Positions 3,406-32,570 of a stretch of 64,000 nt of DNA are shown piece after piece (position 1 is the first letter of the stretch; each line of letters begins with the position of its first letter). The translations under genes were made by a program, and so were the position numbers. A model generated the notes under the pieces. It was not told the origin of the DNA. It did no database searches and worked only from the letters and a program-made list of their open reading frames with translations. Location: the IMG/VR virus record IMGVR_UViG_3300005683_000050, positions 85,669 to 149,668 of that record, one strand, 5' to 3'. This DNA is from a virus (Duplodnaviria; Heunggongvirae; Uroviricota; Caudoviricetes).

Positions 3406-4083
3406 CTATTTTTCAATTATTCCTATTTCTGACGGCATGGACTCCACTGTAATAATAGCGTCTCCTCCATCGGAAAATAGAGACGTAAAGTCTGCAATAG
3501 ACATTTTGAATGTGCCACTCTTTCCCCACGCATCTCCCCAGCTATTTACAAATTCCATCAATCCAGTATACTTGTCAACTCCATTTATCAAATATGCGTG
3601 TCCTCCAACAATCTCTCCCATCGGAAAGACCAGTCCATCTGCATTTGGATGATTCATTGACTCATACCAATTTGTACCAACAGATATTGGGCCAGTTGTC
3701 AAAATCCAGTTAATAATATCGGAAACTTTTTCTGAACCATTAAATAAGGCATAGTGCTTTATTCTGCCGCGCTGTTGTAGTGCCTTAGCTCCGTTACGAA
3801 TCGTAGTCCCTATTTCCTTAGCTTCTGACCCACTAATTTCAACCGCTTCATAATAAATAGAATGACCATCTGCGTCTTCATATAGAGTTTTCATTGGCAA
3901 GCATCTGCAAAAATGAGCCATTGAAAATCCAACACAATGCTGCGTGTCACCCTGATTTAGAATCTTGTCTACGCTCCAATGTCTTGATATGACGCGGGAC
4001 GAAGACAGGATTTTCTCTTTGGTCAAATACAGGGACGCATTATAGTCCCTACTATCTATCTCATTAGGAATTCTTCCAAACAT
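3406..4083 (-). CDS. papain-like cysteine peptidase (C1 family)
   Basis: QGDTQHCVGFS (Gln/Cys), GGHAYLINGV (His), NSWGDAWG (Asn-Ser-Trp) catalytic signature. Confidence 0.65.
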   Translation of the reverse strand: MFGRIPNEIDSRDYNASLYLTKEKILSSSRVISRHWSVDKILNQGDTQHCVGFSMAHFCRCLPMKTLYEDADGHSIYYEAVEISGSEAKEIGTTIRNGAKALQQRGRIKHYALFNGSEKVSDIINWILTTGPISVGTNWYESMNHPNADGLVFPMGEIVGGHAYLINGVDKYTGLMEFVNSWGDAWGKSGTFKMSIADFTSLFSDGGDAIITVESMPSEIGIIEK

Positions 4084-14443: not shown

Positions 14444-16824
14444 ATCCCTCCCAAAGAACTATTTCCAGCAAGCTTCATATAAGCCCCACTACTTGCGTCT
14501 ACCATATCGTCGTGTACCCTCTTGTTTGGAAACAATTCGAGCTCTTGCAAATAATTTCGATTCCATCCAGCTTTAGCCAGATAAACATGTCGAGCCTCGC
14601 ACATCCCGCTAAACGGCTTTGCTCGGTGAACCTTTTGTCCAGTCATGCGAAAACCATCAAATATAAAATCTGGAAGAACATTTCTGCGATAGTGGTCAAT
14701 TACTGTCTTGCCACTTGCGCCAGGTTCTTGCTCGATATATATCTCTGTTTCATATCCATCTGCAACCGCGCATCTTTTAACCAGCTCTTCAACTTGGGAG
14801 GGAGTGCCTCGAAATTGCTGTACGTCCAGAATGTAAAATTCGTTTTGAGAAGATATTCCCATTAGCACTCCAGCTGTATAGTCGGGGTCGTTATTTCCAT
14901 AATCGGCAACTGTAGCAGCCAAGTCCCAATATCGAACTTTTCTAATAAGCGGAGGAAAGTTTTCAATTGGCGCGGTGTTCTGTCCGTCAAACCATTCCCT
15001 CTTAAACATCTCGCCTTGTTCTTCAATATCCCAGTCTCCAAACAAAAGCCTCGCTCTGGTTACTGGGTCTAACTCGGCAAGAAAACCAGCATATTCTTCT
15101 GCATTGATAGCTGGGTTGTCGTTGATAGTCGCTGGTATAAAGATGCGACCATTTGCGCGTCCCTCATCAATAAATCTCTTCTTGACCCAAACGTGACCTG
15201 GGCCACCAGGATTAGTAGCTGCCCGCATACGAAGCGGAACTTCAACGCCCTTAACGCGACGAATACGAGAAAACAGATATAAATACTGACTTTCTGTAAA
15301 CTGAGTCAATTCATCAAATCCGCAAAATTGTATTTCCGCACCCTGATAGCGCAGCTTATCTCTTTCACTCTCTAAGTATCCGAATGTTAGTGTTGCGCCA
15401 GAGGGAAAGGTGAACTGGTGCTTTTCCGAATCCCACCTTGCATCTGTTCCAGAAAGCCATTCAATCGCGCGAGACATAAGTGCTTGTGGCAACGAAAGGT
15501 CTCTGTAGGTTCTACGTAGTAAAAGAGCTGCGTATCCTGGTACGTCAACATATTGCAGGGCAGACATGAGAAGTGCGGAGCTGTTGTGCGTAACGATAAA
15601 GTCGTTTGTAAGATACATTCCGTTCGGATGGGAGACGGTTATACATCTTCCCCGCACAGTTCCGCCCTTTTCCACCCTAACAACCGCGCGGTATAGATTG
15701 TCGTCAACCTTACATCTTTCTGCCTTTCGCTTAATCCTAAACAGGGACGGCTCATTTCTATGTCTTATATATATCGTATAGGATAACCTTCCAAAGACCT
15801 TTTCTCCACTGGCGTCTCTATAGAATGGGTACTTTTCCGAAACAGTCGCAACCCCGCCCAGTGAGCGAACAATAAAACACACATCTTTGCACATTTGTTC
15901 GCTAGTTGTTGTGTAGTACACCTGCCCTCTTGCATCGGCAGTCCCATCAGTGTCTAGCAATCCTTGTAGTACGCTAAGTCTCGTTTTTACGCTTCCCATC
16001 AAAAACTCTCTGGGAACAAATTTTGTGTCCGATTTAGTTCCCATTAGTCCAAGTTTTTCTAGTTGAGACCTAACGGTTGACAAAGACTGTCCTTTGAGAA
16101 AGTACGAAAACTTACCGTCGTAGCGAAAGTCCATTCCCCTCAAAACGTTATCTCGAATGTGTTCGTGGTCATTCCCACTAATACTGACGGATTGACCAGA
16201 AATACATCCATCTCCCAGAATGTACCCCAACAGATACGGGTCTAGGTTGGATGGATTTCTGTTTGTTACGTTAAAAACTTGCTCGTGACACACTGGAATT
16301 AGAGGTCTTCTTGAAGAGCCATCGCGTTCGGAGCGAATCAGACTTTCGTCAGACCATTTCTTTAAGGTGAATGTATCTATTACCTGCGCGCTCTCCTCTC
16401 CAAACACTCTCTTGCCCTTTATCTTTTTCCCCTTACGCGCTCTCCAGCATACCCACAAATGCTCTCCGTTAACCTCTATTGAAGTTCCATCGTGAAAAAG
16501 TACCTTAAACTTTTCAAGTTCAAACACTGGATGGAGCTGTATTATCTTCGCAACCGTACCGTCTGGGTTATTTACAGCATCTCCAACGCGAAGGTCTTTT
16601 ATTTGCTTAAACCCAAACGGTGTCAGAACAAAGTCGTCAAGTTTTTGGCCTTTCCCGCCGCTTGCTGCGCCGCCAAATAGTACTTCCTTGTTTTGGGTCA
16701 ACAGAAACGCGGTTTGTTTGGGACTTGGTTTCTGAATGATGTACTTATTTAGTTTTGGAAAAAATTTGGTTACATCTATTTTGTCCCAATTGTCTCTAAT
16801 CGTTTCTGGGGTTATTATATTCAC
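14434..16824 (-). CDS. terL: terminase large subunit interrupted by an intein
   Basis: N-extein ends in FGGAASGGK (Walker A, completed by SS after the intein); C-terminal nuclease domain; 796 aa, of which about 355 are intein. Confidence 0.8.
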   Translation of the reverse strand: MNIITPETIRDNWDKIDVTKFFPKLNKYIIQKPSPKQTAFLLTQNKEVLFGGAASGGKGQKLDDFVLTPFGFKQIKDLRVGDAVNNPDGTVAKIIQLHPVFELEKFKVLFHDGTSIEVNGEHLWVCWRARKGKKIKGKRVFGEESAQVIDTFTLKKWSDESLIRSERDGSSRRPLIPVCHEQVFNVTNRNPSNLDPYLLGYILGDGCISGQSVSISGNDHEHIRDNVLRGMDFRYDGKFSYFLKGQSLSTVRSQLEKLGLMGTKSDTKFVPREFLMGSVKTRLSVLQGLLDTDGTADARGQVYYTTTSEQMCKDVCFIVRSLGGVATVSEKYPFYRDASGEKVFGRLSYTIYIRHRNEPSLFRIKRKAERCKVDDNLYRAVVRVEKGGTVRGRCITVSHPNGMYLTNDFIVTHNSSALLMSALQYVDVPGYAALLLRRTYRDLSLPQALMSRAIEWLSGTDARWDSEKHQFTFPSGATLTFGYLESERDKLRYQGAEIQFCGFDELTQFTESQYLYLFSRIRRVKGVEVPLRMRAATNPGGPGHVWVKKRFIDEGRANGRIFIPATINDNPAINAEEYAGFLAELDPVTRARLLFGDWDIEEQGEMFKREWFDGQNTAPIENFPPLIRKVRYWDLAATVADYGNNDPDYTAGVLMGISSQNEFYILDVQQFRGTPSQVEELVKRCAVADGYETEIYIEQEPGASGKTVIDHYRRNVLPDFIFDGFRMTGQKVHRAKPFSGMCEARHVYLAKAGWNRNYLQELELFPNKRVHDDMVDASSGAYMKLAGNSSLGGIWF
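15583..16650 (-). mobile_element. intein with LAGLIDADG homing-endonuclease domain inside the terL P-loop
   Basis: Hint block A-like KLDDFVLTPFGFKQIKDLRVGD; LAGLIDADG blocks LLGYILGDGCI and LQGLLDTDGT; C-terminal IVTHN followed by +1 Ser; the exact N-terminal junction is uncertain (no Cys/Ser at residue 1). Confidence 0.6.
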
Positions 16825-19349: not shown

Positions 19350-19826
19350 TTATACATCTTTATTGTTGTGACATATATATTTATCGTCCAAGATTTCACC
19401 CATTATAGAAACAACGGTTTTCAAGTCCAATCCGCCCATTCCTGCCCCAAACGGCACAACGTGAACATTTCCATCTATATTTTGACAAATTTTTAATAAC
19501 TCAATTGTGGAGTTTTTCACAATCTCGTAGGATGAATTAAATCTCCAGTCGTACTTCGTGACCACAAATAGCATTTTGTATCCATCGTCTCGATAGACCA
19601 ATTTTTGCGGGTCTGATTTAATCCACGCCCCTACCACAGACTCAATCTCTGGAAATCTAATCCTTGCTTGCTTGGCAATTCCAGCTCCCATAACAGCAAA
19701 GCCGTTGCTACGAAGGCAACGGTTTATTGTCACAGTTATATATTCTCCCTCGTTGTGAAACTCCCAGATATTACCGCTTGCGAATTTCATCGTTTTTACT
19801 TGCAGCGAATGAAATGAGCTCAACAT
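19350..19826 (-). CDS. macro domain protein (ADP-ribose binding/processing)
   Basis: FAVMGAGIAKQ and VVPFGAGMGGL glycine-rich macro-domain motifs. Confidence 0.5.
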   Translation of the reverse strand: MLSSFHSLQVKTMKFASGNIWEFHNEGEYITVTINRCLRSNGFAVMGAGIAKQARIRFPEIESVVGAWIKSDPQKLVYRDDGYKMLFVVTKYDWRFNSSYEIVKNSTIELLKICQNIDGNVHVVPFGAGMGGLDLKTVVSIMGEILDDKYICHNNKDV

Positions 19827-20688
19827 TGTTCATTCCAACGTCATCCACATAGAATAGTGAATCTTTGCGTTTTACGTCTATGCCAATTCCTTTTAGAAAG
19901 GAAATAGAACCCTTTGGAGTTCTGGGTAGTTCTGTTCCCCAACATAAGTCCCAAAAACGACAAAATGTACATGGATACTTATCTGGAGATTTCTGCTTAT
20001 TTGGTATTTGCTTATTATTCCAAGCGTACTCCAGGTCATCCATTCTACTCAAGAGCTCGTTCCTGTAATCTTCCAACGACACTGGACTAATTCTAACATT
20101 ACCATCTTTGGCAATATAGAATATAATCCCAAATGGAACTACTGGTATTTTTTCTCCAGAAGGCAAAGCGTATCCACCATTTTTCTGGGATAGATACATA
20201 AACTGACAAATTTGTAGTGCGTGGTGAGGATACTCAGTCCATTTCCCGCCCTTACGTTCTCTGAATTCAACTGCATCCCCAGAGATGCTTTTTATTTCGA
20301 TTGGCATTGCGAATTCAGATGTAACCCACAGACCGTCCGTGTGGGCATAGTGGTAATTGTCCTTTGACTCAGCCTGGGGGTCAATATATCCCATCCCGTT
20401 TTGTGAGACATATTCGCTTACAACGTCCATAAACCAAGATTCAATTTGATGTCCAATATCGAATACTACCATCGTCTCTGCGCTGAAGTGGTTCGTTATC
20501 GGAAACTCACTACGGGACATATAGCTGGCGCGCAAGCATCCACCAACCATACTTGCACCAAATAGGTTTTCAGAGTGGAGGTTTTCCCACTCCTCTTGCC
20601 TAGACTCTCTTGCGCTACCTACTGCCGCATTGAATATATCAATAAACTCACTGACTATCTTTGTGTTGTTCACGCACATCCTCCGCAA
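19771..20688 (-). CDS. Cas4/RecB-like PD-(D/E)xK exonuclease with C-terminal Cys cluster
   Basis: C-terminal YPCTFCRFWDLCWG Fe-S-type cysteine cluster; nuclease-fold core. Confidence 0.5.
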   Translation of the reverse strand: MRRMCVNNTKIVSEFIDIFNAAVGSARESRQEEWENLHSENLFGASMVGGCLRASYMSRSEFPITNHFSAETMVVFDIGHQIESWFMDVVSEYVSQNGMGYIDPQAESKDNYHYAHTDGLWVTSEFAMPIEIKSISGDAVEFRERKGGKWTEYPHHALQICQFMYLSQKNGGYALPSGEKIPVVPFGIIFYIAKDGNVRISPVSLEDYRNELLSRMDDLEYAWNNKQIPNKQKSPDKYPCTFCRFWDLCWGTELPRTPKGSISFLKGIGIDVKRKDSLFYVDDVGMNNVELISFAASKNDEIRKR

Positions 20689-20986
20689 TTTTTATCCAGT
20701 TATCTCTGGATGTCAGACCTAGTTCTTCAGCCATATTTGCACCCCACGTAAATACATCATTTGATAGTTCTTCTCTACTTTCCTTTATCCACTTTTCAAA
20801 CTCTCTTTTTCTGGCAACCGTAGAACGTCGAGTGGGTCGTCCTCGTCTATGACGTAATGGACGACCAGCTCGATTATATCTCATATCCCGTATACGATTG
20901 CTATCTAATTCCCAAACAGCCGCGTAATCAAGAAAAAGACTAAGAAGTATGGCGACAGCTAAATTCTCAATCGGCTCTCGGTTCAT
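20648..20986 (-). CDS. hypothetical protein 112 aa (Arg-rich)
   Basis: minus ORF. Confidence 0.3.
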   Translation of the reverse strand: MNREPIENLAVAILLSLFLDYAAVWELDSNRIRDMRYNRAGRPLRHRRGRPTRRSTVARKREFEKWIKESREELSNDVFTWGANMAEELGLTSRDNWIKIAEDVREQHKDSQ

Positions 20987-22022
20987 TGTCTGTCACGGGA
21001 ACTATCGAACCATCAGAAAAGTTGATTCGACACTTCCATGTTTTTCCAGACGGTAAACGACCACGCTGCTTAGCTATCTTCATAAATATGCAGTCCTCTT
21101 CGACCAGAAATTTGTACCCATTATGCTCTATAACAGAGCCAACGGTATGTGTCCGTTTTGGCATCCACTGCGTCACAATCCTATCGAACCATTGTGCAAT
21201 CGCAGCTGTTTCCATTCCGTCATAATCTCCTGGCAGTAGCATGTTCGGCCCAGGAGCTCCGTCCAGCTTTTGTTTTGCTTGGACTCCTACCACTGAGGGC
21301 GCACGATAGCGTTGAGACCCTCTACGAATCTCTCGAATGTCGGCAGCTACCTGTAACCTACGCAGCTGTTCCTTTGCTACGACCTGTTTTATTTCTGGGT
21401 CATACGGAAATGCTTGCAGGTAGTCCCAGAAAATAGCTCCAACCGTTAGCTCCTTGCCAAGCAAACTATTTTTCGCGCCGTCAACACCAATGAGATAATC
21501 CAAGCATCTCATTACATTTGTCATATATAACTCTGGAAGTGCTTGGGAACTTCTTGCTAAAGACTCACCAACGCGATAAATAGGTACTGTACCGACATAC
21601 GTAGCCGCTTCATTGAGCCTTCCCCAATCAATAACATTTCCACTGGCTATGTCTCCTGAGTCTAGACCAGAGCGCATAGCCATTGCATTAATTACCTGCT
21701 CTTCAATTGTGTCTTCCACCTTCACGACAATTACAACCTCGTCTTGTCTCCCTTCCTCCATCAGTTGTGCCGCAGCCTTTTCAGCCCACCAGTCAATTAG
21801 GCCACTTTTGTTGTGAGACGTTTGCGCGATTATCGCGCAAATCTGACCAGGTAGTAAGTCCCTGAAATACGTATTAATCTTTGGTATCGGAAACCTCAAA
21901 GCGCGATGTCTTTGCTCTTCCAACTGCCTTACTTCTTGCATGGCAAAGGCAGTCGCCTCCGATGGAGTATATACGAATTGACCAACTAAATCCTTGAAAT
22001 TAGAAGAATAATCCATTGCCAT
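20967..22022 (-). CDS. DnaB-family/RecA-fold replication protein, Walker A degenerate
   Basis: GQICAIIAQTSHNKSG in the Walker-A position; 351 aa next to the primase. Confidence 0.4.
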   Translation of the reverse strand: MAMDYSSNFKDLVGQFVYTPSEATAFAMQEVRQLEEQRHRALRFPIPKINTYFRDLLPGQICAIIAQTSHNKSGLIDWWAEKAAAQLMEEGRQDEVVIVVKVEDTIEEQVINAMAMRSGLDSGDIASGNVIDWGRLNEAATYVGTVPIYRVGESLARSSQALPELYMTNVMRCLDYLIGVDGAKNSLLGKELTVGAIFWDYLQAFPYDPEIKQVVAKEQLRRLQVAADIREIRRGSQRYRAPSVVGVQAKQKLDGAPGPNMLLPGDYDGMETAAIAQWFDRIVTQWMPKRTHTVGSVIEHNGYKFLVEEDCIFMKIAKQRGRLPSGKTWKCRINFSDGSIVPVTDNEPRAD

Positions 22023-22653
22023 CTCCGTCAGTCTTAACAGCGACTTCTACCACATCGTTATTAAGTTTTTCAGCATATTGCTGTATGGTGTCTCTAATTG
22101 CAGACTCATTTGGAGGCTGTGGGTTTGCCGACTTCAATACACGCCAGTCTTCTTTCCAGTAAATTCCACCGTCTCCGTAAATTTTCAATATCTGCTCAGA
22201 CGTGTACCCACTACTCAGAAGTTGAGACGCCAATTTCCCAAAACGAGAAGCATTCATCCTAACGTCTCTCTTTGTAACTTTAGCTAATGCACCAACCATG
22301 AGCTGCTGTTCAGTTGGAACTTTTTTAGCAGGCATTTGCTTTATCAGAACTGGCTGTAATGGCTGTTCTGGTTCTTTTTCGCCTTCCAGATTGAGAAAAT
22401 ACTCAAACCCACTACCGACCCTTTCTCGGAGCAATATGCCGCGCTCCATACATTCCAGAACTCCCTGTATCACACCATTAGCACTCAGTCTACACAATTT
22501 AGACAGACTTTCATTGGTGTGCCTAACCTTTCCAACGCCAATAGAGAACGTATCGCGCCAAATAGCAATCGCGACGCGAACGCCAGATTTGTCCATTTCC
22601 ATCAGTGCATCAGACATCTCGTCTGGCATCAATTTGCAATTTGGTCTTTGCAT
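22000..22653 (-). CDS. hypothetical replication-module protein 217 aa (possible winged-helix)
   Basis: minus ORF adjacent to the primase. Confidence 0.3.
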   Translation of the reverse strand: MQRPNCKLMPDEMSDALMEMDKSGVRVAIAIWRDTFSIGVGKVRHTNESLSKLCRLSANGVIQGVLECMERGILLRERVGSGFEYFLNLEGEKEPEQPLQPVLIKQMPAKKVPTEQQLMVGALAKVTKRDVRMNASRFGKLASQLLSSGYTSEQILKIYGDGGIYWKEDWRVLKSANPQPPNESAIRDTIQQYAEKLNNDVVEVAVKTDGDGNGLFF

Positions 22654-22654
22654 C

Positions 22655-23575
22655 TCAGCTCATTTTCCTCGCATTGTCTAACATGAAATTGAATTGCCTT
22701 AGTGAAACTGCCCCGCTAATAATTAAATCGTCTGGCTTTTCAAATAAAGAAACTAAATACAGGTTTTCTAAAAGTGAGGAAAATCTTTTTACTGCCCTGC
22801 CAAATAAATCCCTATCTTTTGATGGAAAGGGGTCTGGTATCAATATGACCTTTTTGAACTTTGACAAGGTGCGAATCACCTCGTCATGTGGAGATATTCC
22901 TGGAATACCGACAACCTGAGTTGTTTTTCCAAGAAACTCGAATACAACAACAGCCTTTTTCCACCCTTCAACTACAACCAATACGTCTCCTTCTGTGGCA
23001 CTAGACATGTAGGCTGGTGCAGCTGGTATATTCGACACCTGTCTGTATTTGCCGACACCAGCAGGCGGGTCAATGAGACGATATTGAATGTTTATGACTT
23101 TGTTTGTTTCGTTTGAAATAATTGGAATTGTATACGACGCGATAGGTTTCTGAATTCCACCAACAAACTTTTGGGTGTATCCGACACAATAAGAATCAAG
23201 CACTGCATCTGGTATCCCAGCGACGTTCCACTCGTCGCGCATCTTTGGGGTTAATTGACTGTGCCATTTTTGAATCTGGCTAAAGTCGAAAGTTGCTTGC
23301 CATTCTTTTAGGGACATTTCTCTCTCTGCCCTAATTTTCCTATCGCGTTCCTCGCGAATTGCGCCGAGCTCTTCTCTTGTAAGACCAATACTTTCATGGC
23401 TAGACAGAAAACCCTTTGAACCACACTTGCGACAATAATAGTTTCCTATATCTTCCCATGCCATAAAGCGGTCTTTCCCGCTTTTGCAGAAAGGGCAAGC
23501 TCCGTGCCACTCTAATCGCCCAGTGCGCTTGAGCGTTATACCGAATTGTTGAAAAGCGAGAGAAGCGACATCCAT
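22655..23575 (-). CDS. DnaG-type DNA primase (zinc finger + Toprim)
   Basis: CPFCKSGKDRF...YYCRKCGSKG zinc ribbon; VLVVVEGWKKAVV and ILIPDPFPSKD Toprim acidic motifs. Confidence 0.65.
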   Translation of the reverse strand: MDVASLAFQQFGITLKRTGRLEWHGACPFCKSGKDRFMAWEDIGNYYCRKCGSKGFLSSHESIGLTREELGAIREERDRKIRAEREMSLKEWQATFDFSQIQKWHSQLTPKMRDEWNVAGIPDAVLDSYCVGYTQKFVGGIQKPIASYTIPIISNETNKVINIQYRLIDPPAGVGKYRQVSNIPAAPAYMSSATEGDVLVVVEGWKKAVVVFEFLGKTTQVVGIPGISPHDEVIRTLSKFKKVILIPDPFPSKDRDLFGRAVKRFSSLLENLYLVSLFEKPDDLIISGAVSLRQFNFMLDNARKMS

Positions 23576-23581
23576 ACATAC

Positions 23582-23610
23582 AGTATATCACGTAAATGTG
23601 TTTTTGTCAA
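23582..23610 (-). promoter_or_regulatory. sigma70-type promoter TTGACA-17-TATACT
   Basis: read on minus strand; directly upstream of the primase. Confidence 0.55.
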
Positions 23611-23621
23611 ACACATTAAAA

Positions 23622-23648
23622 ATAGGGGGTGTGTCCCCCTATTTTTTA
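23622..23648. terminator. bidirectional hairpin terminator
   Basis: AGGGGG-tgtg-TCCCCCT with flanking A/T runs on both sides. Confidence 0.5.
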
Positions 23649-23930
23649 CTCTTCAGACTTTTTTGTTTTATTCAAGATTGCCTGCGCCCCAGTTCGAGTT
23701 TTGGCTAAGACAATCAATATGGTCGGCTCGATGTATTGCATTTTCACGTCTACAACCTCACCGTCCAGACCGTTTAGCCACTCCGCAATTGGAATGTTTA
23801 CAACACCGTAGTCCATAGAGAAATTAAATATCTTTTGATTCCACATTCGATTCGTTCTCCACAACGAAAAAGTAGTGACCAGACGGAACTGTTTTAAGAT
23901 TATAGACAGATATTCCAATATCTTCCACAA
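23646..23930 (-). CDS. hypothetical protein 94 aa
   Basis: minus ORF. Confidence 0.3.
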   Translation of the reverse strand: MWKILEYLSIILKQFRLVTTFSLWRTNRMWNQKIFNFSMDYGVVNIPIAEWLNGLDGEVVDVKMQYIEPTILIVLAKTRTGAQAILNKTKKSEE

Positions 23931-24072
23931 CCGTATTCAACGATACGTGAAGCCCATCTGGTTTATACCCATATTTTTTAACAAAATAATGAAGACCGTC
24001 TTTTGCTATTTCGGCTGGAGGTTTCTTTTTACTATCCATCTCCTGCCACAGCATAGCCCATGCCCAGTTCAT
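23824..24072 (-). CDS. hypothetical protein 82 aa
   Basis: minus ORF. Confidence 0.3.
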   Translation of the reverse strand: MNWAWAMLWQEMDSKKKPPAEIAKDGLHYFVKKYGYKPDGLHVSLNTVVEDIGISVYNLKTVPSGHYFFVVENESNVESKDI

Positions 24073-24083
24073 GTCACCTCCGA

Positions 24084-24494
24084 TTACAACATCTTCATTC
24101 TTTTTTCTGTTTTTTCAAAAATCCTATCGTAATTTTCGTGTTCTATTTCAACTTGACCGTCTGGATTTGTTCTTTTCCACCAAGTCTCACCATTGTTGTC
24201 TGTGTATAATCTTTCCATCACAGTCCCTGATGATTGTTTTGTCATTTTTTCAGATTCGTCGGATAACGGGTTACGTAACCACTCTAGAGGGTTTTGTGGT
24301 TTTGGGGAAGGCTCTCGCCTAACAAAAGCATAAACAGAAACAATGACGAGCAACAGAATAGCTCCGACTAAAACTGCAATGGGATTGGTTTGAATCAAAG
24401 ATTCTACCAAGAAATATATCACCATTGAAAACAAAGATACACAAATCGCAAATAAAATAAACCACTTCATTTCAGACCATGCTCCCCGTTTCAC
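24084..24494 (-). CDS. membrane protein 136 aa
   Basis: two TM helices then acidic tail. Confidence 0.3.
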   Translation of the reverse strand: MKRGAWSEMKWFILFAICVSLFSMVIYFLVESLIQTNPIAVLVGAILLLVIVSVYAFVRREPSPKPQNPLEWLRNPLSDESEKMTKQSSGTVMERLYTDNNGETWWKRTNPDGQVEIEHENYDRIFEKTEKRMKML

Positions 24495-24535
24495 TATTTT
24501 TTGTATGTGAGGTTATTCATCAGATGATTATAACA

Positions 24536-24606
24536 AGCCCAAACTGAGAATCGAACTCAGGTTTTGTCCTTACCAAGAACGCGTCCTGCCACTAAACGAT
24601 TCGGGC
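24536..24606 (-). tRNA. tRNA-Thr(GGT), short D-loop
   Basis: acceptor GCCCGAA/TTTGGGC, T arm CTGAG-TTCGATT-CTCAG, anticodon loop TTGGTAA on a 4-bp stem with a 27-43 mismatch. Confidence 0.5.
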
Positions 24607-24612
24607 ATACAG

Positions 24613-24698
24613 AGGACGGGAAGAGAATCGAACTCTCAGAGCTTTTACACCCGCACGTTTAGCAAACGTGGTAGCACTACCAATATGCCAGCCCGTCC
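24613..24698 (-). tRNA. tRNA-Ser(GCT), type II
   Basis: acceptor GGACGGG/CCCGTCC, anticodon arm CACGT-TTGCTAA-ACGTG, long variable arm. Confidence 0.7.
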
Positions 24699-24854
24699 TT
24701 ATTGTTTACTTGCCTTTTCCAGTACTTGACGCTCAGACGCAGACGCCCTGCGCGTTTCTTCTCCATCCACAATGTACCATTCCTTGCCAATCTTGTACGC
24801 TTCGCCATTCTCAATCATTTCTTCGGCGCGTTTGTTTGATAAAGTCCTAGCCAT
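24699..24854 (-). CDS. small protein 51 aa
   Basis: ATG with GGAAGG SD; below ORF-track cutoff; stop abuts the tRNA-Ser 5' end. Confidence 0.3.
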   Translation of the reverse strand: MARTLSNKRAEEMIENGEAYKIGKEWYIVDGEETRRASASERQVLEKASKQ

Positions 24855-24951
24855 GCTTACCTTCCATAAAACTAGATATAAATTGTGTACTTCCGATAGT
24901 TAGTGCAATTGAATCTTGTCTGAGTTACCGATTTGAATAACGTATGTCATA

Positions 24952-25022
24952 CAGGGACAGAGGGACTTGAACCCCCAACAATTGTTTTGGAGACAAACAT
25001 TTTACCATTAAACTATATCCCT
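24952..25022 (-). tRNA. tRNA-Trp(CCA)
   Basis: anticodon loop CTCCAAA; acceptor AGGGATA/TGTCCCT; T loop TTCAAGT. Confidence 0.65.
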
Positions 25023-25059
25023 ATTTAGAGGCAGTCTTTGCCCTGCCTCACTCAAAGTA

Positions 25060-25088
25060 ATTATACCACACATCCATCCGCTTGTCAA
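25060..25088 (-). promoter_or_regulatory. sigma70-type promoter TTGACA-17-TATAAT
   Basis: upstream of tRNA-Trp; TGTGG precedes the -10. Confidence 0.6.
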
Positions 25089-25090
25089 GA

Positions 25091-25741
25091 TTACAACGGA
25101 TACGGATATTTTGTTTTCTTAATGTTGCGTACATTCAACGGACGCGGCTCGTCATCACCAGAAACAAGTCTCAAATAAATGGTTGTTTCATTTTCTGTGT
25201 CAACCTCAAATCTGGGAACAGAACTGAATACTTGACCGCTTTGACCACTTTGCCCGATTATGCCAGCAGACTTTGCCGTTGAAGACGATTGCGAAGAGGC
25301 ATATGTCGTATTATAAACAAAGTTCCCAGTTGACTGACTACGAAAATTTTCAATTACTGGCAATGGCATCGGATTGTAAACCTCTGGGGTGAATACGGCT
25401 TCAATCAATCCCCAATCTGACTTCGCCATGTATGCTTGCCCAGCGGCATACGCATCCTCAGTATACGATGTGTAGTACGTAAATCTTCCATTGCTATGTG
25501 CTGGACGCTCAATGCGTCCAGTCGTAAGCGCGTTAAGAGAAAACTCTCCAACAAGAAATCCATTCATCTTTAACCGCAAGGACGCTCGTCTGTTGTTTGA
25601 ATTCATTACGGTTACAGAGAATTTCTCGCCGTTTCTCATTACCACATACCCATCAGCATCATGCGTTTTTCCGCTTACGAGTAGCGTGTATCCATTAAGT
25701 TCCATTCTTGTTCCTTTCAACTGTTCTGTGGCAATTCGCAC
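25091..25741 (-). CDS. hypothetical protein 216 aa
   Basis: minus ORF. Confidence 0.35.
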   Translation of the reverse strand: MRIATEQLKGTRMELNGYTLLVSGKTHDADGYVVMRNGEKFSVTVMNSNNRRASLRLKMNGFLVGEFSLNALTTGRIERPAHSNGRFTYYTSYTEDAYAAGQAYMAKSDWGLIEAVFTPEVYNPMPLPVIENFRSQSTGNFVYNTTYASSQSSSTAKSAGIIGQSGQSGQVFSSVPRFEVDTENETTIYLRLVSGDDEPRPLNVRNIKKTKYPYPL

Positions 25742-26027
25742 ACAGAATTATGCACTTCCTTATTTCGTCAAAAATCAACTCTAGAGGCAATCCATTACCA
25801 ACCATCTCGGATACATTGCCTACTTTTTCCGATGGATTAAGGTGGTGAAAATCCAGCGACTCGGCAGCATCCCTAAATCCACAGCGCATACATCCGTACC
25901 TAATCTTGTATGTGTCAACGAATCTTTTTGACTCGATTCGCCTGTGATTTACCTTCGTTCTGATTTGAGACGGAGGGTCTGACAAACGCTCTCCAATCTC
26001 GAATAACTCTAAATCCCATCCATGCAA
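25695..26027 (-). CDS. HNH endonuclease
   Basis: CMRCGF...HHLNP...CANCH motif. Confidence 0.6.
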   Translation of the reverse strand: MHGWDLELFEIGERLSDPPSQIRTKVNHRRIESKRFVDTYKIRYGCMRCGFRDAAESLDFHHLNPSEKVGNVSEMVGNGLPLELIFDEIRKCIILCANCHRTVERNKNGT

Positions 26028-26386
26028 TAGGAAACCGCCTCAAAGACGAGAGACAATTCACCACCTGAATGGCGTCTCGCTGCTAACCCACCAGACGCTA
26101 TACTATCATACCCATTGGTAAATAAGTCTTCAAGCAGCTGTCTGGCAGTCTCTTTAATAGATTCTACCGATGGCGATTCATCTCCTAGCCATGTCCATCC
26201 GAAAGTTCGCATGAAAAAGTATACCTTTTGAAAATCAAAGTGAACCATAATCTCTTCTATGGCTTCTTCTTGTTTTTCAGTTATTTTGCCCATTATGCCC
26301 TCCATTTGGGTACTGCAAAAAGTGCGATGATTTATAACGGTTTGCGTTAGCGACTGGGCGTGACATTCACGCCACACTGCCAGCAA
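26009..26386 (-). CDS. hypothetical protein 125 aa
   Basis: minus ORF. Confidence 0.3.
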   Translation of the reverse strand: MLAVWRECHAQSLTQTVINHRTFCSTQMEGIMGKITEKQEEAIEEIMVHFDFQKVYFFMRTFGWTWLGDESPSVESIKETARQLLEDLFTNGYDSIASGGLAARRHSGGELSLVFEAVSYCMDGI

Positions 26387-26634
26387 TATAACTCGCCCTC
26401 AATTTCTCTTTTTTCGGGGTGCATACAAGCCCCCTGCACGCGTTGTTCGGCGGCAGCAAAGTCTTTCCAACCTACTCGCCAATCAGCGATTGCAAATATA
26501 TTTGTGCAACGGCAATCGGTTATCGGTTTACCTGCGGCTGCCGCTTTTATTCCAGATTTGTACGCTCTGGAAAATGTGTTTGTTGGAAGTTGGCCTAATG
26601 TTTGCATGGTAGCCGCCGAACGGTCATGCTTCAC
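26347..26634 (-). CDS. Cys-rich small protein 95 aa
   Basis: CRC...CMHPE...CWQCG cysteine pairs. Confidence 0.3.
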   Translation of the reverse strand: MKHDRSAATMQTLGQLPTNTFSRAYKSGIKAAAAGKPITDCRCTNIFAIADWRVGWKDFAAAEQRVQGACMHPEKREIEGELYCWQCGVNVTPSR

Positions 26635-26664
26635 TGGCGCGGCGATGCGGGCTCGCGGTTATAT

Positions 26665-26937
26665 TTATTCCGCCTCACGATTTACAAAAGCGCCTGGATG
26701 TGGATTGTCCTTCATCCACTGCTCATTATATTTACGAGCGGCTTCATAGCAATTTGGGCATACGCTTGTGCCAGTATTCCATGATGTCATAATAGAATTG
26801 TTTGACACCCCAGTTCTCCGTTCGTGACCGCCAAACTCTTGCCCGCAAAGTGGACACGAGAGCCAAAAATAGCCAGCGAAGTTTGCCCATAATTTATGTA
26901 ACCATCTTGGAATTTTCATGTTTACCTTTCTCGCCAC
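26665..26937 (-). CDS. zinc-ribbon protein 90 aa
   Basis: CPLCGQ...CPNCY. Confidence 0.3.
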   Translation of the reverse strand: MARKVNMKIPRWLHKLWANFAGYFWLSCPLCGQEFGGHERRTGVSNNSIMTSWNTGTSVCPNCYEAARKYNEQWMKDNPHPGAFVNREAE

Positions 26938-26967
26938 GTTTGCAAGGCGGCGGCATAACGGTTGGAT

Positions 26968-27399
26968 TCACTGGCGCGGCGATGCTGGCACAGTGATTTG
27001 GATAGAATTACCACAATGCGAGCAAGTCGCGCCCGCTGGCTCAGGCGTAGCCGCGTCCATGTGCAAGCGGTGCTGGGCGCGTTCTGCCCACCCTGAAACA
27101 TCATTACCACGCTCACACAAATAAACGGAGTAACTGGGAATTGAGCCATAGGCATATCGCCTTTCAAATTCGCTCACGGAACAAATGCCAACCTTGCCAT
27201 CTTTCGGAACTTCGCAGGGCGGGTTGCACTCCATGAAAGTAACTCGGTTGCCTTCTCGCCCTATGACATAGACATAAAAGGAAAACATTTCCGTAAACCT
27301 ATCGCCTGGCTGCGGGTCGTTCATTGCCTCAGCTGTTTCTGCCTGTGTTTTTTTGGTATCGAACATAAGACCTTTCACGGACGCGGAATAAGCGTCCAA
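26968..27399 (-). CDS. hypothetical Cys-containing protein 143 aa
   Basis: minus ORF; CEVPKDGKVGIC...CSHCGN. Confidence 0.3.
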   Translation of the reverse strand: MDAYSASVKGLMFDTKKTQAETAEAMNDPQPGDRFTEMFSFYVYVIGREGNRVTFMECNPPCEVPKDGKVGICSVSEFERRYAYGSIPSYSVYLCERGNDVSGWAERAQHRLHMDAATPEPAGATCSHCGNSIQITVPASPRQ

Positions 27400-27474
27400 C
27401 TGTCCGTATCAAGTATTTGATTGTCCATTTTAATCTCCCCGATTATGTTTTTATTACCACTCCCTGTAGTAATT

Positions 27475-27708
27475 CTAAATGTGGTCGCCAAGAGCGCCAT
27501 GTGAACTTATAAACACATCGAAGTCTTCAACCACCTCGCGCGTTATAAGGTCAAGAACTCTCACCTGACTCGTATTTAATTTCGAGTAATAAAATTCACG
27601 TACCGAAAAAAGAATCTGAATGTCTTCCTCGCTCATTGCGCGCAAGATTCTGTGAAGTTCCGCGCTTCCGCCGTGAAATATATAATTGTACGGATTGTTT
27701 ACGCTCAT
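27475..27708 (-). CDS. hypothetical protein 77 aa
   Basis: minus ORF. Confidence 0.3.
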   Translation of the reverse strand: MSVNNPYNYIFHGGSAELHRILRAMSEEDIQILFSVREFYYSKLNTSQVRVLDLITREVVEDFDVFISSHGALGDHI

Positions 27709-28698
27709 TTATTCAACCATTGAACGAATTATCTCCGCATGGTCTTCAAAGAAGTGACGCTCTAATCTTTCAACCTGAAATAATGGCATCCAAAAGGCGT
27801 CATCTCCACCGCGAATCTCTGGCAACTCCCGATTGTTTCCCATGTTAATGTAGTAGCACATTGTAAATGTCCTACCGCGCAAGCTCCTATATGGATAGTC
27901 GAACATTCTTTCCGAGCGTATCGAAGAAATCAGGTCTGCTTTTGAAATTCTAATCGCAGTTTCTTCTTTAAGCTCTCTAATTGCGGCGTCTCGCAAAGAC
28001 TCATCCGACTTTACAAATCCACCTGGCAGAGCGTACAGTCCCTTTCCAGGAAACCCTCCACGCTTTGTTATTAGAACGTGATTAGACGCGACTACAACAC
28101 AGTCTACCGTTACAAATGTCGGCGCATATGGAACAGACTTCCACAGCTCAGTGTATTTGTCAGCAAACAATTGTTCTTTGACCAATTCATTGTACTGCGC
28201 TGTTCTACAGAATCTTTCCATGAACATACAAGTCTGCTCTGGGACATAATCAATCCAATCCCTTTTTCCCCTGAAGTAATGTTCCCTAATAGTCGTTGCG
28301 TGTTTGGGAAAAATTTGACTGAAGTTTGGAGAGTCCACTTCCCACTGAGGAAAATAATCAAGGTAAGCAGAAGTTGAGTCAGACCTTGTTCCGACCAAAC
28401 AAACGTCTTCGTCGGAGAACCTGTCGTATACCGACCTAGATACCTCGTTAACCCATTTCGCATCGGAATACCAATAATCTCTCATGGGGAATGTGCGTAT
28501 ATTTGCATTTATAGCATGATTACTCATAATCATGCTCTCGCGAGACGAGAAATCCCAGGGGTTCTTGATGGTGGATGCGACATTGACACTGCCAATGCCA
28601 ATTGCTACTGTGTGGTAGCGGCTGAGGGCGTAATCAACAATTGCTTTGTGAGCAAGATGATACGGCTGAAACCTACCTAAGACTAATCCTATTTTCAT
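27709..28698 (-). CDS. bifunctional NMN adenylyltransferase / Nudix hydrolase (NatV/NadM-Nudix-like)
   Basis: N-terminal GRFQPYHLAHKAIV nucleotidyltransferase (H/T)xGH-type motif; C-terminal GGFVKSDESLRDAAIRELKEETAI Nudix box. Confidence 0.7.
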   Translation of the reverse strand: MKIGLVLGRFQPYHLAHKAIVDYALSRYHTVAIGIGSVNVASTIKNPWDFSSRESMIMSNHAINANIRTFPMRDYWYSDAKWVNEVSRSVYDRFSDEDVCLVGTRSDSTSAYLDYFPQWEVDSPNFSQIFPKHATTIREHYFRGKRDWIDYVPEQTCMFMERFCRTAQYNELVKEQLFADKYTELWKSVPYAPTFVTVDCVVVASNHVLITKRGGFPGKGLYALPGGFVKSDESLRDAAIRELKEETAIRISKADLISSIRSERMFDYPYRSLRGRTFTMCYYINMGNNRELPEIRGGDDAFWMPLFQVERLERHFFEDHAEIIRSMVE

Positions 28699-28728: not shown

Positions 28729-28801
28729 TGGGCCCAGCAGGACTTGAACCCGCGACGCGCAGCTTATGAGACTGCCGTTCTAACCACTGAACTATAGGCC
28801 C
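28729..28801 (-). tRNA. tRNA-Met(CAT) (Met, fMet or Ile2)
   Basis: anticodon loop CTCATAA; acceptor GGGCCTA/TGGGCCC; D arm GTTC-AGTGGTTA-GAAC. Confidence 0.7.
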
Positions 28802-28889
28802 GACTTTATATGCCAGACAAAATAAAAATCTTTAACCGCCGAAAAACGAGTGGTGAAAAAGAATCGTCCCAACTGAATCCGTGAAAGCA

Positions 28890-28918
28890 TTATAACATAA
28901 AGTTATCAGTTTGTCAAC
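28890..28918 (-). promoter_or_regulatory. sigma70-type promoter TTGACA-17-TATAAT
   Basis: upstream of tRNA-Met and the NMNAT-Nudix gene. Confidence 0.6.
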
Positions 28919-29259
28919 ATGTTTGATTCTATAACCAATATAATCGCAACACACACATTTTTGTGAATAGCAGATTTTGTAAACATATCCGCTCTCCACA
29001 TACCATCAGTTCTTGGTGTTAGCGAAACACCGAAATACATTGCCAGACGCAAGGCGTCTGATATGGACTGGTCGAATTGAACGGGCATCCATTCTTGGAT
29101 GTCGTCATGCTCGTACAGGTGAGCGACATACCAATTTCCACCTTCTGAAAATATCGGGCTACCACCCATGTACGCAGAAAAGGTTGTAATCCACTCATCG
29201 GGAAACTCTAAAGGCTTAGGTTCTCCCATTATTGCAGCCAGAGAATCATTACTTAACAT
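28906..29259 (-). CDS. hypothetical protein 117 aa
   Basis: minus ORF. Confidence 0.3.
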   Translation of the reverse strand: MLSNDSLAAIMGEPKPLEFPDEWITTFSAYMGGSPIFSEGGNWYVAHLYEHDDIQEWMPVQFDQSISDALRLAMYFGVSLTPRTDGMWRADMFTKSAIHKNVCVAIILVIESNMLTN

Positions 29260-29872
29260 TTGCAGCCCCTATTCCAGCTAGTCTATCGCACTCTTCATTC
29301 ATTGGATTTCCATTATGCCCACGCACCCATACTGGAATGATTGTTTTCCCCCGCATTGCAAAATCCATAGATTGCAACTCTTTGGCGTTCACAATTGGCT
29401 TTCCCTTTTTCGCCCACCTCATACGTTTGTACTCAGACATATTAAGAATTGCCGAGACACAATACATCGAGTCTGTGAATAAGTACGCCTTGCCCCATTC
29501 TGGAACTAGTCCGATTGCGGCAATGCAGGACGCAATTTCCATCTTGTTGTTAGTTGTATCTAAAGCTCCGCCGTTTACAGATATAAATGAATCACCAAAG
29601 ATAGATATAGCGGCGTATCCACCTCGACCGTCCGCATAATTCCCAGACCCGTCCGCGAACAATACCCTCTCCCCGCTATTTACTAAGGATGTATAGTCAA
29701 CATCGCTATCTGAAAGAAATTGTCCCGTATTCATATACGCCATCGCTTCGTCTTTTGAGATAAACGATTTGAACATAGCACTTGGGAATCCGTAAACTTG
29801 GTGCTTGGCTTCTTCCCAACTATCGTAAATGCCTGGAACTTTCCCGTTCTTAACTGCGTATACCTTTCCCAT
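29249..29872 (-). CDS. RNase H (type I) with N-terminal extension
   Basis: FADGSGNYADGRGGYAAI and VWVRGHNGNPMNEECDRLAG catalytic motifs. Confidence 0.7.
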   Translation of the reverse strand: MGKVYAVKNGKVPGIYDSWEEAKHQVYGFPSAMFKSFISKDEAMAYMNTGQFLSDSDVDYTSLVNSGERVLFADGSGNYADGRGGYAAISIFGDSFISVNGGALDTTNNKMEIASCIAAIGLVPEWGKAYLFTDSMYCVSAILNMSEYKRMRWAKKGKPIVNAKELQSMDFAMRGKTIIPVWVRGHNGNPMNEECDRLAGIGAANVK

Positions 29873-30986: not shown

Positions 30987-31322
30987 CTACTGGACTAGCC
31001 ATCCAAAGTTATATCCGTATATACTGACCCCACTGATACGACTGAAGTGCATTCGCCTCATAGTGTCTACTCTAAAATCGCAAACAATAATTCTGTCGTT
31101 CAGTTCGACCACAACACCTTCATGCGCCCTATAAGACCCGCGCATCGTTGAGTCAATAATCGGCATTTGTCTCGCAACAACATCTCCGACCACGAGACTT
31201 TCGAGCCATGCGGTTCGAGATAAATCTGTTTTGGCGGGAATTGCTGGATTAGCGATTTCGCATTGTTTCATCTTTGCATTCAGAACAACATTCCTGTCCG
31301 CACAAAACAGGAATGTTGTCAA
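30987..31322 (-). CDS. hypothetical protein 111 aa
   Basis: minus ORF. Confidence 0.3.
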   Translation of the reverse strand: MTTFLFCADRNVVLNAKMKQCEIANPAIPAKTDLSRTAWLESLVVGDVVARQMPIIDSTMRGSYRAHEGVVVELNDRIIVCDFRVDTMRRMHFSRISGVSIYGYNFGWLVQ

Positions 31323-32533
31323 TCCTTGTAAGGGTCGTACTCGTTTCCAGCCATGAGGACAATGCGCGGATAAAGTGTTATTTCATTCTTCACGTACGTT
31401 GAGTGTGAATCCAAAACGTCTTGCAACTTTTGGTACACAAAAGGACTTTCGTCCGTTCCCCCTCCGAGCAGATAAACACCGTATTCGTTTAGCGCATCAT
31501 ACATCATGTTCCTTGAAATCTTTCCGCCAGAACGTTCTCTTGTCTTATAGTTAAGCTTCCCAGCTGCTTCTGTGCGAGACATGACACGCCCAGCACCATG
31601 CATCGCAGAGCGAAATGAATACAAGTAATCTTCCGTACTAACGCCGCGAATTACAGCAGACATGTCAGCCATGCTTCCTCCGACAACAGAACAAGATTCC
31701 GTATCGAGAGGCGTAGCTCCCTTGCGGATAACGATAACGTCATCTCCGAAATGCGATTCGCGCCACGCGAAGTTGTGGTGATTATGTACCGTAAACGTAA
31801 CGTTGCTCCCCAATTCATTTGCAATCGTATCCACTACCCAATTACGTCCAGCGTATGCATATTCGCCAGCTAAACTCATCGCATCCCAATACAGACTACC
31901 TAGTTCTGTGTTCGTTCGGTATGCCACTGGATAAATGCCCTCTTTTTCTCCAGACACTTTGTCGCTGAACCGCTTGCCCTCTCCCAAATTCAGAAATCCA
32001 CTTGCTACCGCATGTCCGAACCCACGCGAACCAAAGTGAGCCATAATCCAAAGGTATCCATCTTCGTCGGATAGAAAATCAACAAAGTGATTACCAGAGC
32101 CTACAGTTCCCAATTGCACCATTGCCTTTTGTTTCAATGGCGCAAAGAACTCATGTTTCCACAGCTCGTTATCGAATAGCGGAGACCACACTTCGGTATT
32201 GTTTTTCCTGCCAATACCGAATGAAACCACATTATCGTAAATATGTGCCGCAAATTTTGCGAGAAATCCATCTGGCAATTTATCTAATTGAACATCTGTG
32301 CGGCTTGCTCGAATACCACAGGCAATATCGTATCCAACCCAAGCGGGAACAACCATGTCTGGCTCTACCACAATAACACTACCGACTGGCGCGCTATATC
32401 CCTTGTGGTTGTCTGCCATCAAAGCAGCTCCGATTACGCCATTAACCTGAACGCAATTCTGAATCTGCTCGAAAGCACCGCTATCAACCCTACCAAACGT
32501 TGTTATCCCGTTAATTATTTTCATTGTTTTCAC
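31319..32533 (-). CDS. rtcB: RtcB RNA 3'-phosphate/2',3'-cyclic-phosphate ligase
   Basis: GSGNHF, HNHHNF and HGAGR metal/GTP-binding signatures; 404 aa. Confidence 0.85.
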   Translation of the reverse strand: MKTMKIINGITTFGRVDSGAFEQIQNCVQVNGVIGAALMADNHKGYSAPVGSVIVVEPDMVVPAWVGYDIACGIRASRTDVQLDKLPDGFLAKFAAHIYDNVVSFGIGRKNNTEVWSPLFDNELWKHEFFAPLKQKAMVQLGTVGSGNHFVDFLSDEDGYLWIMAHFGSRGFGHAVASGFLNLGEGKRFSDKVSGEKEGIYPVAYRTNTELGSLYWDAMSLAGEYAYAGRNWVVDTIANELGSNVTFTVHNHHNFAWRESHFGDDVIVIRKGATPLDTESCSVVGGSMADMSAVIRGVSTEDYLYSFRSAMHGAGRVMSRTEAAGKLNYKTRERSGGKISRNMMYDALNEYGVYLLGGGTDESPFVYQKLQDVLDSHSTYVKNEITLYPRIVLMAGNEYDPYKD

Positions 32534-32542
32534 TTGTTGCGA

Positions 32543-32570
32543 TTATATCATCAAATGGTCTATTTGTCAA
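32543..32570 (-). promoter_or_regulatory. sigma70-type promoter TTGACA-17-TATAAT
   Basis: directly upstream of rtcB. Confidence 0.6.

Follow-up and report, generated by a model that had tools for sequence, protein, structure and literature searches.

Rebuilding NAD+ is a recently recognised way in which phages escape NAD-depleting immunity, and all described versions of it are two-gene pathways: NARP1 (Adps and Namat), NARP2 (Nampt and Nmnat) and NARP3 (PnuC and NadR; defining features taken from PMC13464706). The NARP2 pair of Vibrio phage KVP40, NadV (Nampt) and NatV (Nmnat), overcomes Thoeris, DSR and SIR2-HerA, and 94% of Nampt-bearing phages also carry Nmnat (preprint 10.1101/2024.02.11.579819). 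A published generalisation holds that every phage with NadM also has NadV. Orphan antitoxin mimics directed against DarTG are already documented as well (PMC11825919, PMC11481870). AdfM, a phage DarG2-like macrodomain, strips the ADP-ribose added by DarT2 from DNA and rescues DarT2 toxicity, and an N23A mutation lowers its activity (PMC13309987). Here we compare these systems with a 64,000-nucleotide stretch of tailed-phage DNA (positions 85,669 to 149,668 of IMG/VR record IMGVR_UViG_3300005683_000050; hereafter the window), which encodes a NadM-Nudix fusion of the NatV type, a macrodomain and a MazG-like NTP pyrophosphatase.

A first-pass annotation of the window had joined these three proteins into one counter-defence toolkit. 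The reading that we prefer, with a probability of roughly 55%, is that they are accessory enzymes, independent of one another, in a novel tailed phage rich in tRNA genes, and not one coordinated system. The three are divergent new members of known families in an unusual arrangement, and they do not constitute a new kind of system.

Three enzymes in separate modules of a tRNA-rich phage genome

We observed that all three open reading frames (ORFs) proposed by the first-pass annotation were present on the minus strand, as are all long ORFs in the window (GC ~43-44%). Its domain calls were right, that of MazG at superfamily level only (Table 1). The genes are 8 kb and 27 kb apart and lie in three different modules. 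The NadM-Nudix gene is preceded by a tRNA-Met gene. The macrodomain gene belongs to a block in the order primase, 217-aa ORF, helicase-like gene, 112-aa ORF, Cas4-like exonuclease, macrodomain, in which it lies immediately downstream of the exonuclease gene and overlaps it. The MazG-like gene is part of a tight block of cpYpsA, MazG-like, ThyX and ribonucleotide reductase (RNR) genes, in that order, followed by a DNA methyltransferase gene.

Scanning the coding strand for promoters, we found four promoter-like sites within 14 kb, each matching 11-12 of 12 consensus positions with an extended -10 (three at 12/12) and each heading a gene or a tRNA block. One lies upstream of tRNA-Met and NadM-Nudix, which are probably co-transcribed from this promoter of their own; a GGGGAG Shine-Dalgarno sequence stands 5 nt ahead of the NadM-Nudix ATG. 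Another precedes the primase-to-macrodomain block. The three modules, together with separate promoters for two of the genes, therefore argue against a single coordinated toolkit, and the proposal that the enzymes act together in counter-defence was not supported by the gene layout.

The genome is that of a large tailed phage of ~150 kb, rich in tRNA genes. The source is a metagenomic contig (ENA ERZ761584 NODE_4, 149,834 bp), of which 148,756 bp (99.3%; record positions 1,079-149,834) were assembled by walking in both directions with exact-protein look-ups (0 conflicts; 1,078 N); the first 1,078 bp are unread. An independent JGI assembly holds a 149,668-bp contig with an at least 90%-identical variant of the same tail protein. 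ARAGORN called 45 tRNA genes between window positions 24536 and 61651, all on the minus strand and serving nearly every amino acid, an unusually high number at a genome size of ~150 kb. Megablast of 10 kb against GenBank phages gave 0 matches, the best match of the portal protein was only 29% identical, and single-protein scans of metagenome and genome contig collections returned no relative. There is no near genome in GenBank, and a synteny comparison with a close relative was therefore not available.

A full-length NadM-Nudix protein without a Nampt partner

The NadM-Nudix product is full length, with both catalytic motifs intact and both activities predicted. Pfam recognised a NUDIX domain (1.6e-19, residues 196-324) and a CTP_transf_like domain (1.3e-4, residues 6-59), and PHROG_395 matched over the full length (3.9e-60). 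Matches to the NCBIfam models for bifunctional NMN (nicotinamide mononucleotide) adenylyltransferase/Nudix proteins reached 9.3e-92, yet remained under the equivalog cut-offs. Residues 3-328 were colinear with residues 9-338 of slr0787 from Synechocystis (PDB 2QJO; 7.4e-71, 40.6% identity over 323 positions), and also with residues 9-345 of NadM from Francisella tularensis (PDB 2QJT; 5.4e-59), so that both alignments span the full length. In the alignment to 2QJO, the HIGH-type motif (GxFxPxHxxH; here G8-R-F-Q-P-Y-H-L-A-H17), the second nucleotidyltransferase motif (SxTxxR-type; here ATTIRE) and the Nudix box (G-x5-E-x7-REL-K-EE-T-A-I, with the catalytic RE-x2-EE as RELKEET; GFVKSDESLRDAAIRELKEETAI) were all intact. 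The phage protein differs from these two relatives in having H-L-A-H for H-x-G-H and Ala for the last Gly of the Nudix box. The gene also differs in being phage-borne with no Nampt after it, whereas the closest bacterial genes mostly have Nampt next.

NadM-Nudix homologues were present in 481 GenBank phage records, at an identity to the phage homologues of at most ~41%. The nearest bacterial homologues were scattered across Anaerolineales (47%), Moraxella (44%) and Psychrobacter (41-42%), so that a host could not be deduced from this protein.

That the window holds no Nampt, as the first-pass annotation had noted, was confirmed by tblastn with the Nampt of Phaeobacter phage MD18 (best E 0.12). 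The annotation had also suggested looking for a NadV/Nampt or Adps/Namat partner in the flanking genome. We found none: over the 148,756 bp read, out of 149,834 bp in the contig, the best E of the same query was 0.28. The query is sensitive enough for this negative result to be meaningful, since in GenBank it detects both NARP2 Nampt and NARP1 Namat, with 1,938 phage records at E <= 1e-20. A 17-residue tblastn match at 26307-26357 (E 0.12-0.28) was considered as a possible Nampt remnant and dismissed as chance. In the precomputed Pfam lists of the contig's called genes, there was no Prs/Adps-like, PnuC, NadR, Sir2 or KptA family, no Pribosyl_synth or Pribosyltran family and no NAPRTase; NUDIX was the only NAD-salvage family.

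Compared with the described pathways, the phage resembles NARP2 of KVP40 in its Nmnat gene, which is of the same second-enzyme type (NMNAT fused to Nudix) and is expected to convert NMN and ATP to NAD+, but the contig lacks Nampt, the first enzyme that defines NARP2 and to which Nmnat is functionally linked in that pathway. It differs from NARP1 in that neither Namat, which the Nampt query covers, nor a Prs-like Adps family in the precomputed lists was found. It differs from NARP3 in that neither PnuC nor NadR is on record for the called genes, a weaker test that uses precomputed hits only. With no Nampt or Namat, the phage therefore has the last step to NAD+ only, or half of NARP2. NARP2-type NAD+ reconstitution is impossible for the phage alone and possible only with NMN supplied by the host. 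The earlier proposal that a NatV-like enzyme rebuilds NAD+ was thus right about the enzyme family and is weakened as to the pathway.

We also examined the place where a partner is usually encoded. Nampt lay directly downstream of NadM-Nudix in six of seven phage loci inspected (MD18, two IMG/VR contigs, Synechococcus phage BUCT-ZZ01, Mesorhizobium phage Cp1R7A-A1 and Ralstonia phage RSP15); only the T4-like Cronobacter phage S13 departed from this order. In MD18, the order is NadM-Nudix, a small ORF and then Nampt. Of 50 bacterial loci, 19 had Nampt directly downstream, and among the 18 closest it was found there in 16. No Nampt was adjacent in the other 31, commonly the more distant ones, and a stand-alone role of NadM-Nudix is therefore biologically possible. 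In this phage, the place downstream of NadM-Nudix is taken by unrelated small ORFs. A 77-aa ORF found there was compared with the spacer ORF of MD18 as a possible counterpart, and we observed no similarity between them.

A DarG-type macrodomain in a replication block

An exhaustive HMMER search with the macrodomain recovered 1,963 representatives, mostly stand-alone proteins of ~145-155 aa; a word-indexed homologue search gave one distant match only. The protein matched PHROG_335 (1.6e-25) and, in its macro part only and under the cut-off, the NCBIfam model antitoxin_DarG (6e-8). Pfam Macro was matched by 28 of the 61 members of the family alignment. A profile of these 61 sequences, searched against the PDB, listed DarG of M. 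tuberculosis (1.1e-24), DarG of T. aquaticus (TaqDarG; 8.9e-22) and TARG1 (6e-15), and no other macro clades. Alignment of the family to AdfM (PhiKZ gp104) with hhalign gave a probability of 99.7% (E 7.5e-26) and placed N35 on AdfM N23.

Residues with assigned roles in DarG and AdfM are kept. Across the 61 sequences, K91 was invariant, and W94 (nearly invariant) and N35 were at least 90% conserved. N35 stands at the ADP-ribose-binding Asn (TaqDarG N22, AdfM N23; residue roles from PMC5179494 and PMC13309987), and T90-K91-Y-D-W94 corresponds to T79-K80-x-x-W83 of TaqDarG. In TaqDarG, catalysis depends on the lysine K80, and W83 has been proposed to stack against the modified thymine; TARG1 has Ala at the latter position (PMC5179494). 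The protein is a stand-alone phage macrodomain of ~150 aa that keeps the Asn, the catalytic Lys and the Trp; its closest known counterparts are AdfM, the DarG macrodomain (PDB 5M3I, 5M31) and human TARG1. It differs from AdfM in its identity of only 24% and in a 6-residue insertion before the VMGAG loop; this phage is also not a chimallivirus and so has no phage nucleus. It differs from DarG in having no C-terminal DarT-binding domain.

These data suggest that the protein is most likely a DNA ADP-ribosylglycohydrolase that would act like an orphan antitoxin against DarT-type toxins. The earlier suggestion that it could reverse DarT-type ADP-ribosylation agrees with its closest characterised relatives, DarG and AdfM. 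The replication-module context here, together with a homologue that directly follows DNA polymerase A in Listeria phage LIS04, fits a DNA substrate. We also considered a role as an Appr-1''-p phosphatase, as the PHROG label "phosphatase" and Tpt1/KptA RNA splicing would suggest, and rejected it: the contig has neither a KptA nor a 2H family on record, and DarG/TARG1 are the nearest matches of the profile.

Alignments with homologues begin at residue 13 (MKFASGNIW...), which makes the ATG at 19790 a possible true start. This start would cut the overlap with the exonuclease gene from 56 nt to 20 nt.

A MazG-like gene among genes for dNTP synthesis

The MazG-like protein matched PHROG "pyrophosphatase" families at 3e-21 and 4e-20. 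A profile of five sequences gave weak matches in the PDB to phage MazZ (7ODY; 1.2e-3) and DCTPP1 (0.085). The E-x2-E ... E-x2-D metal-binding motif is present (VETAEAV ... VELADTV) and conserved in five phage homologues, and homologues occur in 361 GenBank phage records, in which the annotated ones are mostly labelled pyrophosphatase. The name MazG-like is valid at superfamily level only. In common with MazZ and DCTPP1/RS21-C6, the protein is predicted to be short and all-alpha with the same motifs, and its gene adjoins that of a dNMP user, ThyX; it differs from them in lacking any Pfam MazG match.

No dUTPase family was found in the precomputed Pfam lists. Because of the ThyX/RNR context, the relatives among deoxynucleoside triphosphate (dNTP) pyrophosphatases and the absence of a dUTPase on record, we infer a role in dNTP metabolism: the best-supported assignment is a dUTP/dCTP-type pyrophosphatase that would feed thymidylate synthesis or clean the dNTP pool. 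The first-pass annotation had proposed alarmone hydrolysis, for which we found no support, and no link to NAD is visible. MazZ being the best PDB match, we considered the Z-base pathway; no PurZ-like (adenylosuccinate-synthetase family) gene is on record in the contig, and this assignment was rejected.

The gene directly upstream, which the first-pass annotation had not recorded, encodes a cpYpsA protein of the SLOG superfamily. A survey by Iyer et al. placed viral YpsA-like SLOG domains in the NAD+/ADP-ribose network and proposed that they act on signals of the cyclic ADP-ribose (cADPR) type (PMC9503650). This neighbour leaves a link between the MazG-like protein and nucleotide signalling possible. 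Alarmone hydrolysis would be better assigned to a 149-aa protein encoded outside the window, which has a weak match to HD_4 (RelA/SpoT-type HD), than to the MazG-like protein.

A PARP-like enzyme and RNA repair genes

Beyond the window, the contig encodes a PARP-like ADP-ribosyltransferase. Its H-Y-E triad is intact, and its best PDB matches are PARP4 and PARP1. A T4 Rnl1-like RNA ligase gene lies just upstream, its stop codon 13 nt ahead of the start of the PARP-like gene, and a CCA-adding enzyme is encoded further upstream. Homologues are rare in GenBank phages (8 of 50,697 records). In IMG/VR, we examined 80 loci found with the PARP profile: 17 had an Rnl1-like gene upstream of PARP, on the same strand and 1-8 kb away, and 3 had a DarG/AdfM-type macro gene ~90 nt upstream. 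Some of these contigs are redundant, and the counts come without a background control. The PARP neighbourhoods of four GenBank phages showed no shared context, save for a macro-like gene ~5 kb upstream of PARP in Klebsiella phage 05F01.

The RNA-repair set of the phage comprises RtcB, two RNA ligases, the CCA-adding enzyme and Thg1, plus the 45 tRNAs. The genes for RNA repair or processing that lie outside the window are those for the CCA-adding enzyme, the Rnl1-like ligase and a cREC-family protein.

Other genes in the window and the contig

The window also encodes an HK97-type capsid protein, a prohead protease, a portal protein and the large terminase, as well as a primase, a helicase-like protein, RNase H1, RtcB, an RNA ligase, a Thg1-like enzyme, a class II-like RNR and ThyX. 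The LAGLIDADG domain in the large terminase suggests an intein or a homing-endonuclease insertion. The same domain is faintly matched between the two methylase halves of a 624-aa DNA methyltransferase that is encoded outside the window. The genome has at least five DNA methyltransferase genes (four N6_N4_Mtase, one MT-A70). Accessory genes that are unusual for a phage encode ferritin-like, SPFH/Band 7 and papain-family peptidase-like proteins.

Table 1. Features of the phage genome, in window coordinates unless stated otherwise
Feature	Position	Strand	Size, evidence and context
NadM-Nudix (NatV-type) bifunctional NMN adenylyltransferase/ADP-ribose pyrophosphatase	27709-28698	minus	329 aa; Pfam, PDB, NCBIfam, motifs
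DarG/TARG1/AdfM-type macrodomain	19350-19826	minus	158 aa; possibly 146 aa from ATG at 19790
MazG-like all-alpha NTP pyrophosphatase	55591-55974	minus	127 aa; PHROG, weak PDB profile, motif
cpYpsA (SLOG superfamily)	55959-56432	minus	Pfam cpYpsA 3.1e-13; directly upstream of MazG-like, overlapping its start
ThyX flavin-dependent thymidylate synthase	54945-55598	minus	Pfam Thy1 8e-32; directly downstream of MazG-like
Class II-like ribonucleotide reductase	52946-54952	minus	Pfam RNR_Alpha, Ribonuc_red_lgC, RNR-II_ins_dom, all weak; after ThyX
DNA primase (zinc ribbon + primase core)	22655-23575	minus	Pfam Zn_Ribbon_Prim, Zn_ribbon_DnaG weak; PHROG_47 8e-12; first gene of macrodomain block
Helicase-like replication protein (weak call)	20967-22022	minus	PHROG_239 primase/helicase 2.1e-5
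Cas4/PD-(D/E)XK-type exonuclease	19771-20688	minus	PHROG_1706 1.2e-14; PHROG_1990 7.7e-10
Promoter-like site before primase-to-macrodomain block	23582-23610	minus	11/12, extended -10
Terminator-like hairpin	23618-23646		12-bp stem; just upstream of primase promoter
Promoter-like site before tRNA cluster	25060-25088	minus	Consensus scan
tRNA-Met (CAT)	28729-28801	minus	ARAGORN; between promoter and NadM-Nudix
Promoter-like site upstream of tRNA-Met and NadM-Nudix	28889-28917	minus	TTGACA, 17 nt, TG-TATAAT; 12/12
Promoter-like site before RtcB	32542-32570	minus	Consensus scan
RNA-repair genes, from among RtcB, RNA ligase with PHA02142 OB domain, Thg1-like 3'-5' polymerase and RNase H1	31319-32533, 59356-60354, 62087-62818, 29249-29872		
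PARP-like ADP-ribosyltransferase	contig record 33927-35081		384 aa; Pfam PARP 1.4e-20, weak WGR; ~13.6 kb beyond window position 64000
Large terminase	14434-16824		LAGLIDADG domain, residues 283-336
DNA methyltransferases in the window	34525-35553, 51979-52998		
Ferritin-like, SPFH/Band 7 and papain-family peptidase-like proteins	58813-59301, 32817-33728, 3406-4083		

Discussion

Family membership, conserved motifs, gene order and the lack of Nampt and Namat on the contig are shown directly by the sequence, whereas co-transcription, substrates and biological roles are deduced. Three independent accessory enzymes would act as follows. The N-terminal NadM domain would convert NMN and ATP to NAD+, and the C-terminal Nudix domain would cleave free ADP-ribose to AMP and ribose-5-phosphate. 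NMN would have to come from the host, possibly from a host Nampt, from the NAD-dependent DNA ligase of the host, which releases NMN, or by import of nicotinamide riboside or NMN. The protein would thereby speed NAD+ re-synthesis and clear ADP-ribose, and would not rebuild NAD+ from nicotinamide unaided. The macrodomain would remove ADP-ribose from thymidine in phage DNA and counter DarT-type toxins. The MazG-like protein would turn a (d)NTP into a (d)NMP for the adjacent ThyX or sanitise the dNTP pool, in either case unrelated to NAD.

Several observations weigh against this reading. A stand-alone phage NadM would be an exception to the published NadM-NadV rule; if the contig represents the complete genome, this phage has NadM-Nudix and no NadV, which contradicts that generalisation. 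Completeness is itself deduced and not proven: the two assemblies are of similar size, and either end of the contig carries a block of small genes on the same strand. Although the contig (record 1079-149834) has primase, helicase-like, exonuclease and RNase H genes, none of its genes was recognised as encoding a DNA polymerase, which could indicate that part of the genome is absent; outside the structural region of the contig, there was no unassigned ORF of at least 400 aa. The macrodomain sequence itself has no Pfam match, and the MazG-like protein has none even at E=10. The AlphaFold model of the macrodomain, made from a two-sequence alignment, was unusable (mean pLDDT 37.7) and gave no structural confirmation; the single-sequence model of the MazG-like protein was likewise unusable (pLDDT 47.3), its helical secondary structure being of low confidence. 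The promoter calls are matches to a sigma-70-type consensus only (12 positions, extended -10), from which promoter function is deduced. Finally, the PARP-like enzyme is an NAD+ consumer in the same genome, and the NAD-related genes may be functionally linked despite their distance.

The toolkit of the first-pass annotation, in which NadM-Nudix rebuilds NAD+ through a host Nampt, the macrodomain erases DarT marks and the MazG-like protein removes alarmone or signalling nucleotides, strikes us as unlikely. It draws on the ability of the KVP40 Nampt and Nmnat pair to beat Thoeris, DSR and SIR2-HerA (preprint 10.1101/2024.02.11.579819), on the likeness of the macrodomain to DarG and AdfM, and on the cpYpsA SLOG protein beside MazG, whose class is predicted to act on cADPR-type signals; the 31 of 50 bacterial NadM-Nudix loci that have no adjacent Nampt indicate that other NMN sources are workable. 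However, no Nampt or Namat is encoded in 99.3% of the contig, a host Nampt is hypothetical, the genes occupy three modules with separate consensus promoters before two of them, and the MazG-like gene lies inside a ThyX/RNR block, its nearest solved relatives being dNTP pyrophosphatases. An ordinary NARP2 pathway with an assembly gap, in which NadV lies on an unassembled part of the genome, would restore the published rule that each NadM phage has NadV and would sit well with the unrecognised DNA polymerase and the 1,078 unread bp. That explanation is improbable given two independent assemblies of 149,834 bp and 149,668 bp, unrelated small ORFs in the usual Nampt place downstream of NadM-Nudix, and small genes of the same strand and style at both contig ends, the pattern that an arbitrary break in a closed map would leave; a 1.4-kb Nampt gene does not fit into the unread 1,078 bp either.

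The remaining alternative ties NadM-Nudix and the macrodomain to the PARP-like enzyme in an ADP-ribosylation cycle of the phage's own. The PARP-like protein, a WGR-ADP-ribosyltransferase, would write ADP-ribose on nucleic-acid ends or proteins during RNA or DNA repair, the macrodomain would erase it, the Nudix half would dispose of the product and the NMNAT half would keep up NAD+. The intact triad and strong PARP match (1.4e-20), the position 13 nt after an Rnl1-like ligase gene, the heavy investment of the phage in RNA repair, and the upstream Rnl1-like (17/80) and macro (3/80, ~90 nt) genes in IMG/VR PARP loci are consistent with such a cycle, as is the macro-like gene ~5 kb upstream of PARP in phage 05F01. 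Yet the Rnl1 association comes without a background control and from some redundant loci, and nicotinamide released by PARP would not be recycled without Nampt. We rate the cycle low because the PARP, macrodomain and NadM-Nudix genes are ~50-60 kb apart in different modules, and because the macrodomain keeps W94, the proposed thymine-stacking Trp of DarG, and so looks specific for DNA thymidine. In its strongest form, which is less likely still, the orphan NadM-Nudix would serve a PARP/macrodomain circuit in tRNA and DNA repair with NAD+ made from ligase-derived NMN, as a phage counterpart of the eukaryotic PARP/TARG1/NMNAT axis.

The interest of this genome is in how its genes are arranged. 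A phage that keeps only the last-step enzyme offers a direct test of what NadM-Nudix is worth alone, whether in recycling ligase-derived NMN, in clearing ADP-ribose or in using a host Nampt; alternatively, the counter-defence reading may require both genes. The macrodomain adds a possible AdfM-like factor against DarT, in a phage lineage that has no relation to the nucleus-forming jumbo phages. The PARP-like enzyme beside RNA-repair genes, an arrangement that recurs among contigs of uncultivated viruses, suggests that ADP-ribosylation and nucleic-acid repair are connected in phages, a link that has been little studied.

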